The translations under genes were made by a program, and so were the position numbers. Positions 995-63,989 of a stretch of 64,000 nt of DNA are shown piece after piece. Positions within the stretch are counted from its first letter, which is position 1, and each line of letters opens with the position of its first letter. The notes beneath the pieces were generated by a model. The model was not told where the DNA came from. It worked only from the letters and a program-made list of their open reading frames with translations, and did no database searches. Source of the stretch: Candidatus Saccharimonadales bacterium (GTDB lineage Bacteria; Patescibacteriota; Saccharimonadia; Saccharimonadales; JBGSXW01); NCBI GenBank assembly GCA_041751215.1, contig JBGSXW010000002.1, forward strand, positions 67,123-131,122, read 5' to 3'.

Positions 995-1720
995 ATGCTT
1001 CCTAAAAAATGCCCTGTCTGTAAGAAGAAAACACTTTCGTTTAATGAAAAGTATATTTTCTGCACTAACTGTACTGTCTACAAGAAGCCGCTAAGCATAT
1101 TTCAGAAGCCGTTAGCCTGGGCGAGCAAAAAACATTGGTGGTGGAGGCTACCGATACTTGGCTGGTTTATTGCCATGCTTATAGGGAACCTGCGGAATCA
1201 TTCCTTCTCTTTAAACCGCCTTAGTAATCCGTTTTCAGCGCTTGATTTTGGCTTGCATGAGCTTGGGCATGCGCTATTTTCACCCTTTGGAGAGTTTATG
1301 CATATCGCCGGCGGATCCATATTTCAGTGTCTCGTTCCTCTGCTAGCATTAGCTGGATTTTTGCAGAAGAAGTGGTACTTTGCTGCTTCGCTGTGTTTTT
1401 GCTGGCTTGGGCTAAATCTATTTGATGTCGCGACATATGCAGCCGACGCTCGTGCTCGGTTATTGCCGCTTTCTGTTGGCCCTGGAATATTAGGTATAAA
1501 TCCTGCCGATACAGATGCGGCCTATGATCGAGCTCACGACTGGTATCAACTGCTAAGTCGAATAGATCGCTTAGATTCGGACCTAGCGATTGCACAAGGG
1601 TTACGTGTTGCTGCCACGGTTGTATTTATAATCGGACTGACGCTTGCGAGTATCTTGCTTCTACAAATGATATTGAGCTCAGTAAAAAGACTATTTAAGG
1701 GCTCAAATAGCACTATTTAG
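995..1720 (+). CDS. polytopic membrane protein with N-terminal Zn-ribbon and HExxH motif (metalloprotease-like)
   Basis: 241 aa. CPVC..CTNC at the N-terminus, HELGH motif, several hydrophobic helices. Confidence 0.45.
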   Translation: MLPKKCPVCKKKTLSFNEKYIFCTNCTVYKKPLSIFQKPLAWASKKHWWWRLPILGWFIAMLIGNLRNHSFSLNRLSNPFSALDFGLHELGHALFSPFGEFMHIAGGSIFQCLVPLLALAGFLQKKWYFAASLCFCWLGLNLFDVATYAADARARLLPLSVGPGILGINPADTDAAYDRAHDWYQLLSRIDRLDSDLAIAQGLRVAATVVFIIGLTLASILLLQMILSSVKRLFKGSNSTI

Positions 1721-1792
1721 TATTCGCGCCACCAAACGCAGCCACTTTCTTTGAGCAAGTCGCCCAGTGAATCCATGTCTTAACTTTTAGCA
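1720..1792. repeat. copy B of the direct repeat; truncated 5' fragment of a DUF721-like gene
   Basis: Minus strand reads MDSLGDLLKESGCVWWREY-stop. It abuts the stop codon of the 995..1720 gene. Confidence 0.8.
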
Positions 1793-1955
1793 TCAATTAG
1801 TGCTCTTGCATCTGGGGGCCTCCAACATTCTTGCATACTCCGAAGAACACATAGATCATGTGATTGAAGTGACAGGGTTTGCTTATGGTCTGCTCGACTT
1901 CTTCGTAGGCGCAAGCCACAACTCAAACTTCTATAGACTTTGCTTGCCAGTATCT

Positions 1956-2348
1956 TTAACCTTGAGTTCTGGCAAAAGCTCGCTGACGTTTTAAGCGGCG
2001 CCGCTCACGTTCGGATAGTCCGCCCCAAATTCCGAATTTTTCTCCGTTTTGGAGGGCATATTCAAGACAATCAACTTTAACCACGCAGCCCAGACAGACC
2101 GCCTTAGCTTCTTTTGAACTTTCACCTCTTTCCGGGAAGAACAGCTCTGGGTCTACTCCTTGGCAGTGGGCAAGGTCCTGCCATGCTTTAACGCTGTCAT
2201 CTACAAGCGCCACACTCCTTACGCCGATTGCACCAACTGCTTGAGCGCTCTCGTTGTCTTGGGCTGTTTGCTGCTCAGTGGTGTCTTCTGCTAGCTCTAT
2301 AGCCTCAACGAGATCTGAGCTTAGGTCGGGGCTAGATGCTTCTGGCAC
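1956..2348 (-). CDS. whiB: WhiB-like (Wbl) Fe-S transcription factor with acidic N-terminal extension
   Basis: 130 aa. Four Cys in the C..CxxCxxxxxC arrangement (HCQG...CLGCVVKVDC) and a GIWGG turn followed by a basic tail. Confidence 0.8.
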   Translation of the reverse strand: MPEASSPDLSSDLVEAIELAEDTTEQQTAQDNESAQAVGAIGVRSVALVDDSVKAWQDLAHCQGVDPELFFPERGESSKEAKAVCLGCVVKVDCLEYALQNGEKFGIWGGLSERERRRLKRQRAFARTQG

Positions 2349-2567
2349 TTAAAGATACCCTCGCTCTGTGCGCGCGTCTGGTTCTTTGGTGGTTCGGCGC
2401 CAACTAAGGTTGCCTGACGGGTCTATCTCAATACCGCCGGGGTTAACCTTAAACTCCGGAATATCTACCGGTTGAGGCAAGTGCTGGGGAGGCACGCCAT
2501 CTAAGGGTATCGCTGTTTCAAATCCCCCTTCGGGGATAAATGTTGGTCCTTGCTCAGTCATTAACAA
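2349..2567 (-). CDS. hypothetical protein (72 aa), directly abutting the whiB-like start
   Basis: ORF track. The stop at 2349 abuts the whiB start at 2348, on the same strand. Confidence 0.4.
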   Translation of the reverse strand: MLMTEQGPTFIPEGGFETAIPLDGVPPQHLPQPVDIPEFKVNPGGIEIDPSGNLSWRRTTKEPDARTERGYL

Positions 2568-2695
2568 GATTTTGAACTCATTCTAGCTTGGGTGCAAGCA
2601 TGAGCGACTTTACTGTGGCCCACAAACAAGGGCCACTCCTTGCGACCGAACTTTCCGGCCAATGCCGGACACGGTTCGAATCCAAGTCTCAACAA

Positions 2696-2731
2696 TGCAA
2701 AAAGCCAGGCCAAATGACCTGACTCTTTGCA
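2696..2731 (-). terminator. stem-loop directly after the tRNA-Gln 3' end
   Basis: TGCAAAAAGCCAGG / CCTGACTCTTTGCA give 12 of 14 pairs with an 8-nt loop. The minus strand ends CUUUUUGCAUUGUUG. Confidence 0.45.
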
Positions 2732-2805
2732 TGGCTGGGGCGGCAGGATTCGAACCTACGATCCCGGGACCAAAACCCGGTGCCTTACCACTTGGCCACG
2801 CCCCA
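2732..2805 (-). tRNA. tRNA-Gln (UUG), CCA encoded
   Basis: Minus strand TGGGGCGTGGCCAAGTGGTAAGGCACCGGGTTTTGGTCCCGGGATCGTAGGTTCGAATCCTGCCGCCCCAGCCA. Cloverleaf folds by hand; anticodon loop is UUUUGGU. Confidence 0.9.
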
Positions 2806-2813
2806 TTGATAAC

Positions 2814-3053
2814 CTATTTTGTCAGATTACTGATTATTTCTCTACCCTTTCCTGATTTGAGAAACTTTTCACGCACAATCGCCTCGCTTCTAGTGTTGTA
2901 CGTTTCAGAATAAACTAACACCCATGGACCTCTGCCTTTAGTGTATCGGGAAAGCTCTTGGTTGTGAGCGTCAAGCCTCCGCTCCAAGTTAGAGGTTTGG
3001 CCCACGTATCTCTTTCCGGTAGATTGGCTTTGCAGTATATAAACGCAGAACAT
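2814..3053 (-). CDS. small GIY-YIG nuclease-domain protein (79 aa)
   Basis: MFCVYILQSQSTGKRYVGQTSNLERRLDAHN... Start moved to ATG 3053, preceded by GAGG. The ORF's N-terminal 13 codons read through a tRNA-like fragment. Confidence 0.75.
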   Translation of the reverse strand: MFCVYILQSQSTGKRYVGQTSNLERRLDAHNQELSRYTKGRGPWVLVYSETYNTRSEAIVREKFLKSGKGREIISNLTK

Positions 3054-3063
3054 ATTAGCCTCA

Positions 3064-3098
3064 CGGTGCCTTATCCGCCTAAGGCGGACCACGCCCCA
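3064..3098 (-). pseudogene. partial duplicate of the tRNA-Gln 5' portion with the D-arm replaced by a GC hairpin
   Basis: 3089-3098 equals 2796-2805 and 3064-3073 equals 2778-2787 (10/10 each). The central 8 nt are replaced by TCCGCCTAAGGCGGA. Confidence 0.6.
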
Positions 3099-3150
3099 AT
3101 ACGCGACTTAGTATACCTTTAACAGATGTCTTTGACTACCGCAGGTTTTG

Positions 3151-4338
3151 CTAAGCGGCTCTTTCCCACTCTTGGTATTGTCCCGGAGTATGAATGCCGG
3201 CACTTTTAATAAGTATGCTGCTTTGTTTTGTAACCTCACCGATTTCTTTGGCTTCCATGCCGTGTTCGTTGGCCAGGGCGATAAGCTTAGCTGGTTCCGG
3301 TGTCGCGCCGATCAATCCTTGACCGCCGTGCCAAGTGGCGTAAAGTTCGCGGTCGGTCATCTTTCTTGGCTCTTTGCCGTCCTCTTCGATTATGGCTTTT
3401 TCTTGCGCAAGTCGCTGAATATCCGGTAGTTCAAACGGCTCCGAAATTACTGCCCCAAGACCGCTTTCGTGCAGAGCTCGGCCTAGCTTTTCGGGAATGC
3501 CGCCGCCAGTTACGTGAGCTACTCCGTGGAGCGGAACCCTTTCTTGCCGTCTTTCGTCATAGCCTCCAGTAGCATCAACTAACATCTTAGAGTAAATCAC
3601 GGATGGAGTTAGGGCTAGCTCACCAATTCTTTGCCCAAGCTCATTGGTTTCCTCGTGCCACTCTTCGCCGTAGGCTCGTTTAAAGATTTTGCGAACCGCT
3701 GAAATACCGTTTGATCTAAAGCCGGGATCGGCTATTCCCACCAATGTGTCGCCTTGCTTGATTTTTTGCCCGGTGATTACGCGCTCCCTATGGATTGCTC
3801 CAGAAACAACAGCATTCCAGTTGAGATGGAACTCACCGTAGCCACCAACCCGGTCACCAAGCTCGGCAGTCTCGCCGGTAAAGACCGCGATTTGAGCGGC
3901 CGCAGCAGCTGCGATGGTGCCAAGTGCTAGGTCGCGGATGTAAGGCATGGTGCGCTCGTTAATGACATTGACGTCTAAGATTGCGGTAACCCAAGCCGGT
4001 TCTCCGCCGGCAGCAGCTAAATCATCGGCTGCCATGGCGTATAAATCAAAGGCCAGAGTGTTAAAAATCAATAAGCGCTCGGCGATTTCTGGTTTTGTGC
4101 CGATACCGTCAGCACTCTCGCTGCCTTTTACGGATTCGACGTCGCGGATTCTACCGAAGTCGATTATGCGCTGGCTAGCAAAGGTGTCGCCCAGCATCTC
4201 TGGCTCGCCAAACAGCTCCGCGCGGTTAGCGTGAGTATGCAAAGAAGCTTCGTAGGCGTACTTAGAGGCGTCGTTTCCTAGATCTAAATCAACTCCAAAT
4301 GAGCGGTACGCGGCGCTGCTATCGACTTGCTCACTCAT
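3151..4338 (-). CDS. PurM/AIR-synthase-related protein
   Basis: ADGIGTKPE (PurM-type DGxGTK) and VTGGG motifs. Start set to ATG 4338 after SD AGGAG; the track start at 4353 is TTG. Confidence 0.6.
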   Translation of the reverse strand: MSEQVDSSAAYRSFGVDLDLGNDASKYAYEASLHTHANRAELFGEPEMLGDTFASQRIIDFGRIRDVESVKGSESADGIGTKPEIAERLLIFNTLAFDLYAMAADDLAAAGGEPAWVTAILDVNVINERTMPYIRDLALGTIAAAAAAQIAVFTGETAELGDRVGGYGEFHLNWNAVVSGAIHRERVITGQKIKQGDTLVGIADPGFRSNGISAVRKIFKRAYGEEWHEETNELGQRIGELALTPSVIYSKMLVDATGGYDERRQERVPLHGVAHVTGGGIPEKLGRALHESGLGAVISEPFELPDIQRLAQEKAIIEEDGKEPRKMTDRELYATWHGGQGLIGATPEPAKLIALANEHGMEAKEIGEVTKQSSILIKSAGIHTPGQYQEWERAA

Positions 4339-4472: not shown

Positions 4473-4595
4473 ATGAATATTTTTGCTCACCACGCGGTGA
4501 ACCATATTACAGATAACGGAGTGCTAATTGTGGTTGGCAGCCTGGCTTTAGCAGCGCTACTAGTCTTAGCAAAATGGAGGAAAAATGAAGGTTAA
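4473..4595 (+). CDS. 40-aa small membrane ORF overlapping the sodC start
   Basis: AGGAGG (4461-4466) lies 6 nt before the ATG. MNIFAHHAVNHITDNGVLIVVGSLALAALLVLAKWRKNEG has one TM helix. Too short for the ORF track. Confidence 0.4.
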   Translation: MNIFAHHAVNHITDNGVLIVVGSLALAALLVLAKWRKNEG

Positions 4596-5106
4596 CTTAG
4601 ATACCGATCAAAAAAAAGTTTCAGCTACTGCCGAGGCGCGAGTAGAAGGCCCGGACGTTAAAGGCCAGGCTACGTTTACCGAGTACGATGTTGATGGCTG
4701 GAAGTATGTTCATCTTCGACTAGAGGTTGCCGGCGACCCAATAGTTCTAGCACCGGGCAAGCACGCCGTGCATATTCACGAAAAGGGCGACTGCGAGTGT
4801 GAGGGCTTTAAGTGCGCCGGCGGCCACTTTGATCCAGGCCCCAATGGCAACAGCGATGCTGACGCCAACCACGGTTACCACGCCGGTGATCTGCCAAGCA
4901 TCACAATCGATGAGTCTGGGAAAGGTATCCTAGAAGCGATTACCACCCGCGTAACTTTATCTGATGGTCCAGTATCAATCTTGCAGCCCGAGGGAGGCAC
5001 ATCATTGATGGTTCATGCCAACCCCGATCCTCATACTCCGGGCGAGACCGGCTCAGGCCACAGCGGGGGCCCTCGTCTAGCCTGTGGGAAGATTGAGCGT
5101 GCTTAA
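4585..5106 (+). CDS. sodC: Cu/Zn superoxide dismutase
   Basis: HAVHIHEKGDC, GGHFDP, HAGDLP and RLACGKI motifs. SD GGAGG at 4576-4580. Confidence 0.85.
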   Translation: MKVNLDTDQKKVSATAEARVEGPDVKGQATFTEYDVDGWKYVHLRLEVAGDPIVLAPGKHAVHIHEKGDCECEGFKCAGGHFDPGPNGNSDADANHGYHAGDLPSITIDESGKGILEAITTRVTLSDGPVSILQPEGGTSLMVHANPDPHTPGETGSGHSGGPRLACGKIERA

Positions 5107-20693: not shown

Positions 20694-20744
20694 ATGACTA
20701 GTCCTCCTTATTTTAAGTAGTATTGATCTGTTAAGGTGGCCAAT

Positions 20745-20773
20745 TAAAAAATCTTTGGCTTATTTACCAAAGA
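20745..20773 (-). terminator. rho-independent terminator upstream of rplJ
   Basis: TCTTTGG / CCAAAGA stem with an 8-nt loop; U6 tract on the minus strand. Confidence 0.55.
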
Positions 20774-20891
20774 CTTTAATAAAAACAAGTTGTTTTTACC
20801 TCGGTAGCGCTCTTAGTGAACCGGAGTCCAAGCTACTGTCTTTGGCGGATAACTTGTTAACGATAACAGATCGGTCATCAGATTGCAATGC

Positions 20892-57920: not shown

Positions 57921-57950
57921 ATTCTATCAGTTACACCCCTGATGTGTCAA
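57921..57950 (-). promoter_or_regulatory. sigma70-like promoter upstream of rplC, with a ~115-nt structured leader
   Basis: Minus strand: TTGACA (57950-57945), 18 nt, TAGAAT (57926-57921). The leader contains the GUCCGCC-UGA-GGCGGAU hairpin (57866-57850). Confidence 0.5.
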
Positions 57951-57967: not shown

Positions 57968-58255
57968 TTAAATGACTAGCACAAACCCGGTTGGCGCAAA
58001 AAAACTAATCACTGCAGCGGCTAGCAACACGGCATATTCAATCTTGCGATCAATCTGAAAGTGATCATGCGATGCAAAGACAGCACCAACAACCAAGCCA
58101 ATGGGAAACGCAGCGCTATCTGACCCGGCAATACTGACAGAATCAAGCTGCAGCCAGAGGGAACCAACAATAAAGTAGAGGATCAGCTTAAGGACATATA
58201 CGCTGTCTGGCTCAGAGTTGGATCTAGACCGCTTGGTTTTTTTAGCCACACCCAC
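57968..58255 (-). CDS. small membrane protein (95 aa, ~3 TM) between rpsJ and rplC
   Basis: GTG start. Hydrophobic segments [52 protein letters not shown]. Confidence 0.55.
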
Positions 58256-58269
58256 CCCCGATATTGTTG

Positions 58270-58602
58270 TTACATCTTAATTTCAGCGTCACAACCAGCT
58301 GGTAGCGACAAGTTCATCAGAGAATCGATAGTCTTTGGTGTTGGCTCGCTGATATCAATAAGCCGTTTGTGCACTCGCATTTCAAACTGTTCTCGGCCTT
58401 TTTTGTAGACGTGAGGGCTTTTAATGACCGTATAGGTACTTTTGCGGGTTGGCAATGGAATAGGGCCAGAAATGTTAGCACCAGTTCTTAGCGCGGTGTC
58501 GATGATTTGCTTAGCCGACTGGTCAATAACCTTATGATCATAGGCCTTTAAACGAATCCTGATTCGTTGCTTGATTGGCGGAGTGGCTTTGTCGGCTACC
58601 AT
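58270..58602 (-). CDS. rpsJ: 30S ribosomal protein S10
   Basis: [20 protein letters not shown]. Confidence 0.95.
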
Positions 58603-58610
58603 TGGATTGC

Positions 58611-59795
58611 TTACTTGCTAATCTTTGTTACAACACCGGCACCAACAGTGCGGCCACCTTCGCGGATAGCGAAGCGCTGACCTTGGTCCATAGCAATTGG
58701 CTGAAGAAGTTTCACCTTGAAGGTGATGGTGTCGCCAGGCATGACCATTTCTTTGTCGGCTGGAAGTTCAACTTCACCGGTTACGTCAGTGGTACGGAAG
58801 TAGAACTGTGGCTTGTAGCCCTTGAAAAATGGTGTGTGACGACCACCTTCATCTTTGGTCAGAACGTAAACTTCAGCGTCAAATTCGGTGTGTGGAGTAA
58901 TTGAACCTGGCTTGGACAAAACTTGACCACGCTCGATGTCTTCGCGCTCAATGCCGCGGAGCAATACACCAACGTTGTCACCAGCTTGTCCTTGGTCTAG
59001 GTTCTTCTTGAACATCTCAACACCGGTTACAACACTCTTGCGAGTATCCTTAACGCCGACGATTTCGATTTCTTCGTTAACCTTTACAATACCTTGTTCA
59101 ATTCGGCCGGTAGCAACAGTGCCACGACCCTTGATGCTAAAGACGTCTTCAACGGCCATTAGGAATGGCTTGTCTAGGTCGCGCTTTGGCTCAGGAATGT
59201 TTTCATCAAGAGCTTTTACAAGTTCCATGATGTTGTCCATCTCTTTTTCGTCGCCTTCAAGCGCCTTAAGAGCTGAACCCTTGATGATAGGTACGTTGTC
59301 GCCATCAAATTCGTACTTGGTAAGCAGTTCGCGAACATCAAGCTCAACGAGCTCAACTAGTTCAGGATCTGCTTGGTCCATCTTGTTTAGGAAGACTACG
59401 ATAGCTGGAACGCCAACCTGACGAGCAAGCAGCACGTGCTCACGAGTCTGAGGCATTGGGCCATCAGCAGCTGAAACAACCAAAACAGCACCGTCAACCT
59501 GAGCGGCACCGGTAATCATGTTCTTGATGTAGTCTGCGTGTCCAGGCATGTCGATGTGAGCGTAGTGACGCTTATCGCTTTCATACTCCTGGTGAGAAAC
59601 GGCAATAGTGATTCCGCGCTCTTTTTCTTCTGGTGCGTTGTCGATCTGGTCGTAGTTAACGGCTTTGTTAACTTCACTTGGCAGCTTCTTTGCAAGTGTA
59701 GTAGTAATAGCTGCTGTTAAAGTTGTCTTACCGTGGTCAACGTGACCCATAGTACCGACGTTTACGTGTGGTTTGCTTCGATCAAAGTCTGCCAT
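58611..59795 (-). CDS. tuf: elongation factor Tu
   Basis: [15 protein letters not shown]. Confidence 0.97.
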
Positions 59796-59883: not shown

Positions 59884-59912
59884 GATTATAGGGAAACTCT
59901 CGAGGTTTGTAA
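59884..59912 (-). promoter_or_regulatory. consensus-like sigma70 promoter for tuf
   Basis: Minus strand: TTTACA (59912-59907), 17 nt, TATAAT (59889-59884). Confidence 0.55.
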
Positions 59913-59920
59913 AGAGTTAA

Positions 59921-60352
59921 TCATGCTCTTTGACCGTCGTCGTTGATGGTTGCAAGGATCTGCGCAAATTCGTCGTCCATTCCCAGCACATCAAGGTCTG
60001 CTCTCATTCGCAAACCTTCTTCGATAGTTGCACACGATCCAGATGCAATTGCAGTTTCGACAAACTCATTAATCTCTGTCGCTTCCACCAGGAGTGAGCA
60101 CGCCAGATTTACGGCATCATCAATCTCGTCTTTAGGGACGCTTGGCTTGGAGTGATAATGTTCGCGCAGAGCAGCCATGAGATCCAGCCGGTTTGGCGCG
60201 TACTTCATGTTATCAACCGTCGTTAGTACGTCAGGCGGAAAGATATACCTTGCATTTAGCTTCTGAGCATACTCGGCCGCCAACCTTTTGGCTGCTTGAA
60301 CTTGCCAAAAACTGAGATCGCCACCCTTGCTTGAAGGATCGACGTCTGACAC
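59921..60352 (-). CDS. hypothetical acidic protein (143 aa) between fusA and tuf
   Basis: ORF track. GTG start 6 nt after the fusA stop. Confidence 0.45.
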   Translation of the reverse strand: MSDVDPSSKGGDLSFWQVQAAKRLAAEYAQKLNARYIFPPDVLTTVDNMKYAPNRLDLMAALREHYHSKPSVPKDEIDDAVNLACSLLVEATEINEFVETAIASGSCATIEEGLRMRADLDVLGMDDEFAQILATINDDGQRA

Positions 60353-62456: not shown

Positions 62457-62750
62457 TTAATTAGTTTCTTCTATGGCAGCGAGTTCGTCGCTGTAAAGTT
62501 CCTGATAGATATCAAGTATTTCCTGGGGTACATCGGCTTCTTCGATGGCAACGGCTAGTCGAACGGCAGCATGTTTTGCGACCTCGTCGCCAAGTTCGAG
62601 TGCAAAGTCAAGATCTTGAGCGGCTTCACTTATTTTGCCGGACGCCATCCCAGTCTTATGAAAGAACTGATACAGTCTATCGGTGGCAGTGAGAAATCGG
62701 GGCGATTCAGCCGCGGCTTCCGTACTAGTAGCTTCTTCTTGCTCAACCAC
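62457..62750 (-). CDS. hypothetical acidic protein (97 aa) between rpsG and fusA
   Basis: ORF track. GTG start 11 nt after the rpsG stop. Confidence 0.45.
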   Translation of the reverse strand: MVEQEEATSTEAAAESPRFLTATDRLYQFFHKTGMASGKISEAAQDLDFALELGDEVAKHAAVRLAVAIEEADVPQEILDIYQELYSDELAAIEETN

Positions 62751-63252: not shown

Positions 63253-63573
63253 TTAATCCTTTGTAGCTTCTGCGTAGCGCGATAAGGCAATGAAACAATT
63301 TATCTCTTTAGGGGCGCCTTTTGCGTGCATTTCTTTCATTATCTCTGGGCAGCGCTCAATCAAGTCCTCGTAAGTTGCGCCTTGTCCGGCATCAATGTAG
63401 GCCTGTGCGTAAGGACAGTCACCAGCAATAGCGTCACGGTAGGCTCTCATTTCATCATAAAGGCTTCGATCAAATGGAAGGTCGTCGTTCGCTTCTGGAC
63501 GGTCGGGTCGATTCTCACACAAGAATACAGGTGTTTCGGCGACTACTGGTGTGTCTGTGGCCTGCTCAGTCAT
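63253..63573 (-). CDS. hypothetical acidic Cys-containing protein (106 aa) between rpsL and rpsG
   Basis: Its ATG overlaps the rpsL stop (TAATG) and its stop lies 2 nt before the rpsG ATG. Four Cys, including two CP motifs. Confidence 0.55.
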   Translation of the reverse strand: MTEQATDTPVVAETPVFLCENRPDRPEANDDLPFDRSLYDEMRAYRDAIAGDCPYAQAYIDAGQGATYEDLIERCPEIMKEMHAKGAPKEINCFIALSRYAEATKD

Positions 63574-63989
63574 TACTTGCTTGTCGCCTTCTTAGCGCCG
63601 TACTTTGAGCGGCGCTGTTTACGTCCTTCGACACCCTGAAGATCAAGTGTGCCTCGAACAATGTGATATCTAACACCTGGAAGGTCTGGAACTCTTCCAC
63701 CGCGGATCAAGACAACTGCGTGCTCCTGGAGGTTGTGTCCTTCGCCGCCAATGTAGGCCCAGACTTCTTGGCCGTTGGTCAATCGAACTCGGGCAACCTT
63801 ACGAAGAGCCGAGTTTGGCTTCTTAGGAGTCTTGGTAGTAACTTTCACACAAACACCTCGTCTAAGAGGGTTGTTCTTCTCGTAGCTCTTGTTGTTTAAG
63901 GTGTTTTGAACCTTATGTAGAGCTGGAGATTTAGAACCTTTCTTAGAGGTTTTGCGTGGTTTTCTGACTAACTGATTAATGGTTGGCAT
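63573..63989 (-). CDS. rpsL: 30S ribosomal protein S12
   Basis: [13 protein letters not shown]...[16 protein letters not shown]. Confidence 0.97.

Follow-up and report, generated by a model that had tools for sequence, protein, structure and literature searches.

The window analyzed here, a 64,000-nucleotide stretch of DNA, ends in the str operon, which lies on the minus strand and carries an additional open reading frame, ORF106, between rpsL and rpsG (Table 1). The window S12 protein is 76–85% identical to Saccharibacteria S12 proteins, and rpoC lies upstream of rpsL beyond the window edge, where its C-terminus is visible in a Logan assembly (L001). To our knowledge rpsL-rpsG-fusA-tuf is among the most conserved of bacterial gene orders, and the rpsL-rpsG gap normally encodes nothing. 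The initial annotation had stated that these two genes are directly adjacent in nearly all bacteria, and 41 non-Saccharibacteria loci bear this out; their spacers are no longer than 213 nt, the longest same-strand ORF within them is 37 aa, and none of these loci, other Patescibacteria included, has a comparable rpsL-rpsG ORF.

Table 1 Features of the str operon region at the end of the window
Feature	Position	Strand	Basis or remark
rpsL, ribosomal protein S12, 138 aa	63573..63989	-	ORF list; PF00164 on identical Logan contig
TAATG, S12 stop and ORF106 start sharing one base (termination-reinitiation junction)	63571..63575	-	read directly
ORF106, acidic 106-aa protein, founder of a four-member orphan family	63253..63573	-	ORF list and homologs
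Cys19 codon, in the acidic N-terminal tail, which is disordered and, apart from this residue, variable	63517..63519	-	invariant
Conserved core, residues 48-104	63262..63432	-	four-sequence alignment and AlphaFold secondary structure
Cys53 codon, N-terminus of a predicted helix; Pro next in two of four members	63415..63417	-	invariant
Cys75-Pro76 codons	63346..63351	-	invariant
Cys93 codon, last predicted helix	63295..63297	-	invariant
AAGGA Shine-Dalgarno for rpsG, within the last sense codons of ORF106	63257..63261	-	read directly
rpsG, ribosomal protein S7, 162 aa	62762..63250	-	ORF list and relatives
ORF97, second junction ORF (rpsG-fusA)	62457..62750	-	pI 4.1, no Cys, no homolog found
fusA, EF-G, 692 aa	60359..62437	-	ORF list
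ORF143, third junction ORF (fusA-tuf)	59921..60352	-	no homolog found
Promoter-like site directly before tuf	59885..59913	-	sigma-70 TTTACA-17-TATAAT, 11/12 match
tuf	58611..59795	-	ORF list
rpsJ	58270..58602	-	ORF list

ORF106 fills the junction as exactly as had first been noticed. The S12 stop codon (TAA, 63575-63573) and the ORF106 initiation codon (ATG, 63573-63571) overlap by one base, and the ORF106 stop codon (TAA, 63255-63253) is followed by "tt" and then by the S7 ATG (63250-63248) on the same strand. The ORF106 start has no well-placed Shine-Dalgarno sequence, the closest AAGG ending 14 nt upstream, which is too distant; a homolog that stands alone in another genome (P0007 in L083, discussed below) has a strong one of its own (AAGGGAGG at -14..-7). 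The coupled copies in the family appear to depend on reinitiation, and ribosomes terminating on S12 could restart on ORF106 by way of the TAATG. The last codons of ORF106 in turn supply the Shine-Dalgarno sequence for S7; it is formed by the codons AAG GAT (Lys-Asp), 6 nt ahead of the S7 ATG, and the purine-rich ends of two homologous ORFs are equivalent to it (GGAGAA in L082 and AAAGGA in L085). The amount of ORF106 protein would be tied to the amounts of S12 and S7. No promoter- or terminator-like site was found from rpsL through the end of ORF143, and the first good promoter match after rpsL is the one directly before tuf, which suggests that tuf and rpsJ can be transcribed separately from rpsL through fusA. 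The co-expression of ORF106 with S12 and S7 that had been proposed for it thus agrees both with the overlapping stop and start codons and with the failure to find an internal promoter or terminator.

Additional ORFs also lie in other junctions of this operon. ORF97 is preceded by a Shine-Dalgarno-like AAGGG that overlaps the S7 stop codon. Neither ORF97 nor ORF143 has a Pfam or NCBIfam match or a relative in any of the 87 loci. The rpsJ-rplC gap contains a hydrophobic 95-aa ORF (57968-58255, minus strand) that is 43% identical to an ORF at the same place in L002, and a strong promoter-like site (57950..57921) lies after it; in L085 this position is occupied by a Transgly_assoc (PF04226) protein instead.

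Several observations bear on whether ORF106 is a real gene. When its sequence was dinucleotide-shuffled 5000 times, the frame stayed open in only 8 cases. The contig is metagenome-derived and comes from a poorly sampled lineage, circumstances under which an assembly or annotation artefact might be suspected, but a separate Logan assembly (L001, from SRR28170463) is identical to the window over 1736 nt and homologs are present in four further assemblies from other samples, so that an artefact can be given practically no weight. Between ORF106 and its homologs, identity at codon positions 1, 2 and 3 is 0.49–0.58, 0.55–0.70 and 0.28–0.47, respectively; the codons of the invariant Cys and Pro residues differ synonymously, Cys19 for instance being encoded by TGT or TGC among the homologs and Pro76 by CCA, CCT, CCG and CCC across the four genes. 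Third positions are saturated while positions 1 and 2 are conserved, and selection therefore acts on the ORF106 protein. The initial annotation had made its reading depend on conservation in relatives, and such conservation is found at the protein level, in 18 invariant columns combined with the saturated third positions. In E. coli, S7 autoregulates through the rpsL-rpsG spacer, and this precedent would favor a regulatory RNA here, such as an S7 operator to which ORF106 would be incidental. However, the ORF106 segment folds no better than its shuffles (z = +0.96), Rfam gives no match at ORF106, and conservation follows codon positions 1 and 2 and not pairing, all of which make a regulatory RNA very improbable. 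We conclude with high confidence that ORF106 is a gene that is translated, selected and co-transcribed, and that its product is a small, helical, acidic protein.

Searching 1.84 billion representative proteins exhaustively with phmmer, with the ORF106 sequence alone as query, yielded three true homologs of 93–97 aa that are 34–40% identical to it: P0006 (E-value 1e-10; in L082), P0007 (3e-6; in L083 and L084) and P0008 (3e-6; in L085 and L086). All four members (ORF106 itself is P0001) are mutually 34–49% identical, and each scores 130–151 bits with the family profile. In a word-indexed homology search ORF106 found only itself, and the family profile there returned the same four proteins and no others. 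Among about 15 billion proteins the family is confined to four sequence clusters, each from a Saccharibacteria str operon, in agreement with the lineage specificity suggested in the initial annotation. No relatives were found in viral contigs, phage records or plasmids, or in scans of JGI metagenomes with back-translated family patterns; the sole metagenomic match to the HA[KQ]GAPxEIxC DNA pattern (L087) is a chance match to a high-GC antisense ORF. Two other proteins matched by phmmer, P0009 (DUF4379) and P0010 (DUF7282), are repeat proteins and are also chance matches. The family is unnamed and unannotated, and a full-text literature search found no mention of rpsL-rpsG ORFs in Saccharibacteria.

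The gene positions in relatives, a check that had been recommended at the outset, are uniform in one respect: all four family members lie in the str operon on the rpsL strand, three at the rpsL-rpsG junction and one upstream. The P0006 and P0008 genes have tight joins like those in the window, with TAAATG or TAATG at the upstream side and 5 or 2 nt between the ORF and the S7 ATG. The P0007 gene, in contrast to these, precedes rpsL by about 415 nt in the same orientation, in a genome where rpoC no longer stands upstream.

The closest relatives of the window S7 belong to Candidatus Saccharibacteria/Saccharimonadales, but none of the GTDB species representatives exceeds 70% identity, and S12, S7 and the three junction proteins are all singletons at 90% identity among 15 billion proteins; the window lineage is a poorly sampled TM7. 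Within Saccharibacteria the gene is patchily distributed. No ORF106 homolog was found within 4 kb of rpsG in any of 39 other Saccharibacteria loci (hmmsearch --max), and L002, the nearest available relative, has no junction ORFs at all. Given its absence from L002 and from most species, ORF106 is unlikely to be a core ribosome component. The window S7 is 61–65% identical to the S7 proteins of the other hosts, yet 66–70% identical to those of many genomes that do not have the gene, and the four hosts are scattered, and are not one another's closest relatives, on a neighbor-joining tree of S12 and S7 (itself a weak tree). Recent transfer of a cassette through the conserved flanks was considered, but the rpsL 3′ and rpsG 5′ ends are no more alike between two hosts than between a host and a non-host, and therefore nothing points to such an event. 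The simplest reading is an old gene with many losses, and we infer that ORF106 is non-essential to the phylum, retained patchily since early times, and replaced or lost in most lineages.

The acidic, four-cysteine character ascribed to the ORF106 protein from the outset is correct (pI 4.4; C19, C53, C75 and C93, with C53-P54 and C75-P76 22 residues apart). The four cysteines, one histidine (H83) and one methionine (M79) are invariant in all four members, and the conserved residues of the core are G51, C53, A56, E69, C75, P76, M79, H83, A84, G86, A87, P88, I91, C93, L97 and A103. A MHA(K/Q)GAP (HA-x-GAP) turn between the last two helices is common to all members. The protein has no signal peptide or membrane segment. 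In structure prediction, which had been put forward as a test, both AlphaFold runs, which were built on the four-sequence alignment, gave a disordered N-terminal third followed by four helices, but with pLDDT values of only 56.6 and 50.8. In these low-confidence models the helices span residues 36-52, 54-61, 68-85 and 88-104, and pLDDT is below 50 at residues 4-34. That C53 and C75 each directly precede a proline suggests that they mark helix N-termini; the low-confidence models place C53 between two helices and C75 inside helix 68-85. In the model C75, M79 and H83, at i, i+4 and i+8, fall on one helical face, with C93 in the partner helix and C19 in the tail, a layout such as would be expected of a single metal center or of a thiol switch joining tail and core.

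Comparisons with known proteins gave little. The ORF106 family matched nothing above noise in Pfam, NCBIfam, PHROGs or PADLOC, a Foldseek search of the PDB returned nothing, and Pfam, NCBIfam and PDB sequence searches revealed no homology to a known ribosomal protein. Weak matches to DUF2802 (E = 0.05), ZF-HD (0.11) and DpdF (0.023) were discarded as noise. A PDB profile search produced just two matches, both short of significance: one to a Rieske ferredoxin (E = 0.011) and one to a designed Rop variant (E = 0.008), the latter due only to a helix-turn-helix hairpin.

ORF106 is one example of a wider phenomenon, as is seen when the str junctions of 42 Saccharibacteria loci are compared. Nine loci besides the window (about a quarter of those sampled), among them the L082 and L085 hosts of ORF106 homologs, have a same-strand rpsL-rpsG ORF of 56–97 aa that starts -1 to +1 nt from the S12 stop and ends -8 to +5 nt from the S7 start. 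About 23 of the 42 loci have an rpsG-fusA ORF (55–164 aa, in most cases beginning no more than 8 nt from the S7 stop), and fusA-tuf ORFs are present in many Saccharibacteria loci. These junction ORFs are nearly all acidic and none has a Pfam match; almost none could be aligned with another by BLASTP, the largest cluster being the ORF106 family. A second small family (L005, L007 and L019), with a Cx7C...Cx4C pattern, numbers just four among 5.8 billion proteins. The recurrence of such ORFs with the same tight joins to S12 and S7 and with nearly unalignable sequences would be understandable if the extra rpsL-rpsG DNA were kept open only to hand ribosomes on from S12 to S7, the amino acids being irrelevant. 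For ORF106 such a relay role is nevertheless improbable, since its 18 invariant residues persist across hosts whose S7 proteins are only 61–65% identical to that of the window, its third codon positions are saturated, and S7 has a well-placed Shine-Dalgarno sequence of its own.

The junction ORFs also differ from their surroundings in cysteine content. The proteins of the window contain 0.48% cysteine, and S12 and S7 have zero or one and EF-Tu zero to two cysteines, whereas at least four cysteines are found in 5 of 10 rpsL-rpsG ORFs (0.01 expected by chance) and 12 of 24 rpsG-fusA ORFs (0.05 expected); at fusA-tuf the figure is 1 of 14 (0.09 expected). Half of the ORFs flanking rpsG have four or five cysteines, often as an N-terminal CxxC(P) or Cx7C together with a C-terminal cysteine pair. 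Junction ORFs, often with four to five cysteines, are a general trait of the Saccharibacteria. The presence of a cysteine-rich junction ORF does not correlate with the cysteine content of S12, S7, EF-G or EF-Tu; six of nine genomes have one such ORF per operon, which is suggestive but not significant. The cysteine-containing rpsL-rpsG ORFs of L038 and L004 were tried as divergent homologs of ORF106 and rejected (hhalign probabilities of 0.2% and 0.15%, respectively; nothing with hmmsearch --max). No homology to ORF106 could be demonstrated for the other junction ORFs, and any argument from the class is therefore one by analogy.

A few of the compared loci have unusual arrangements. L030 has a 303-nt rpsL-rpsG spacer (3697-4001) with stops in all frames, possibly the remnant of a junction ORF that has decayed or else a non-coding element. 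L023, labelled Candidatus Nomurabacteria, yet grouping with Saccharibacteria by S12 and S7, has a 2.6-kb insertion with several ORFs between rpsG and fusA (1071-3653). EF-G of L085, a JGI contig, is called as two overlapping ORFs of 181 and 512 aa (1544-3624), which reflects either an erroneous frameshift or a gene that is split.

What might the ORF106 protein do? Our tentative explanation, to which we would give slightly less than an even chance, is that it is a lineage-restricted, metal- or redox-active small protein that is made together with S12 and S7 and probably acts on S7 or on the translation apparatus. The four cysteines, three contributed by the helical core, including two at helix N-termini, and the fourth by the tail, would form one metal center (Zn or Fe-S) or a thiol redox switch, and the protein could serve as an acidic escort or titrator of a basic ribosomal protein or as a metal- or redox-dependent modulator of translation. 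The two parts of this proposal differ in strength. We have moderate confidence that the invariant Cys/His set, judged from its sequence conservation, is either a metal-binding site or a redox switch. Such a role had been suggested from the cysteines at the start, and it gains plausibility from the invariance of all four, and of His83 and Met79, in a proteome with so little cysteine; the genome does handle proteins of this type, as a WhiB-family protein and a Cu/Zn superoxide dismutase are encoded in the window. We are less confident that the target of ORF106 is S7, S12, the 30S subunit or EF-G, to which it is linked by gene position: no family member has left the str operon, and the cysteine-rich junction ORFs, packed to within a few nt of their neighboring genes, cluster at both flanks of rpsG and not at fusA-tuf, so that S7, the 30S subunit or EF-G is the likeliest target. 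By analogy the proposal might be extended to the whole class, with the rpsG flanks being a slot for fast-evolving, four-cysteine, acidic proteins that serve as metal- or redox-dependent escorts or regulators of S7, the 30S subunit or EF-G, most of them diverged beyond recognition and ORF106 the best conserved; we consider this extension rather unlikely.

The main rival to an action on translation is that ORF106 is a cargo gene, the junctions of the very highly expressed str operon being an expression platform and ORF106 a metal, redox or host-interaction protein whose target lies outside translation. The rapid turnover of the junction ORFs fits such a platform, since they are lineage-specific orphans that are nearly all mutually unalignable, the second junction family is equally small, the ORF106 family is patchily distributed, extra ORFs are found at the fusA-tuf and rpsJ-rplC junctions as well, and the L083 copy works from a stand-alone position outside the junction. 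That same copy, however, has stayed attached to the str operon despite the rearrangement of the L083 locus, the other three members are attached to it as well, and the cysteine-rich ORFs are concentrated on the two flanks of rpsG and are not found at every junction. Moreover, ORF106 has neither an export signal nor a membrane segment, its family has no relative on phage, plasmid or viral contigs, and it matches no defense system. Overall we regard the cargo explanation as possible but doubtful.

The window thus contains a conserved, selected protein in the normally empty rpsL-rpsG position, and Saccharibacteria have repeatedly kept tightly coupled, cysteine-rich, acidic orphan proteins on both sides of rpsG; this phylum-wide pattern at the junctions is more surprising than ORF106 itself. 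Saccharibacteria live as reduced episymbionts, and the unusual nature of their ribosomes is already known. If these proteins act on S7, the 30S subunit or EF-G, they would represent a lineage-specific layer of translation control with metal or redox state as its likely inputs. If they have no role in translation, they are still an example of a highly expressed operon in which fast-evolving genes come to land. In both cases the ORF106 family is short and clonable, which suits it to metal analysis and to pull-downs with ribosomes.

Elsewhere in the window, the WhiB-family protein (130 aa, 1956-2348, minus strand; PF02467, 87.9 bits) has a GIWGG turn. The WhiB family is characteristic of Actinobacteria, and these are known to host Saccharibacteria. 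The Cu/Zn superoxide dismutase gene (4585-5106, plus strand; PF00080, E = 2e-29) is carried by a reduced episymbiont. Upstream of the rplJ-rplL region there is an Rfam match to the L10 leader (20737-20863, minus strand; 47.1 bits, gathering score 44), and a 241-aa ORF (995-1720, plus strand) encodes an N-terminal CxxC...CxxC zinc-ribbon-like segment and hydrophobic stretches and has only weak Pfam matches.

By the defining features tested, ORF106 is outside the WhiB, FusB-type, zinc anti-sigma factor, DUF4379 and ribosomal protein families, although it resembles several of them in part. The WhiB-like proteins (PF02467), which bind a [4Fe-4S] cluster through four cysteines, are like ORF106 in being cytoplasmic, acidic and helical, about 100 aa long and provided with four conserved cysteines. 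They differ in their C-x(14-22)-C-x2-C-x5-C spacing (C-x33-C-x21-C-x17-C in ORF106) and in their G[VI]WGG turn and basic tail, both of which ORF106 lacks; none of the four family members matches the PF02467 profile at E<=10, and hhalign against the WhiB protein of the window gives a probability of about 0.1% (0.12%). Zinc anti-sigma factors of the RsrA type have an HxxxCxxC motif, and their Cys/His metal site is a thiol redox switch that acts on a partner protein. They are also helical, acidic and about 105 aa long with a Cys/His set, but the ORF106 family lacks HxxxCxxC, and even CxxC, in all its members and matches no Pfam model, and a sigma factor is not encoded nearby. A weak local likeness to the DUF4379 treble-clef repeats (PF14311), CPY...Y-x-DL-x-x-x-CPE-x-x-x-E-x-H, is seen with P0009 (E = 1.8e-4); membership was rejected, as this match bridges two repeats and is inflated by their four copies, hhalign gives 10.9%, and the PF14311 model misses ORF106.

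Small extra genes are known before rpsL in other bacteria, such as the L7Ae-like ybxF in Bacillus and tusBCD in E. coli. These are, like ORF106, non-canonical small genes co-transcribed with rpsL and rpsG, but they lie upstream of rpsL and belong to known families. With regard to mode of action, two comparisons may be of use. FusB-type proteins are four-cysteine zinc finger proteins that bind EF-G; they are about 213 aa long, have two domains and CxxC pairs, and are encoded outside the str operon, whereas ORF106 family members have 93–106 aa, a single domain and no Pfam match. Four cysteines and a helical part are common to both, and if ORF106 likewise acted on a str operon product, FusB would be a possible model for how it works. 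The eukaryotic dedicated ribosomal protein chaperones Yar1, Tsr2 and Acl4 are acidic proteins that capture a specific basic ribosomal protein as it is made, and we know of no bacterial chaperone of this type. Their likeness to ORF106 would be one of function and not of homology, that of an acidic protein co-translated with its potential basic clients, here S12 and S7.
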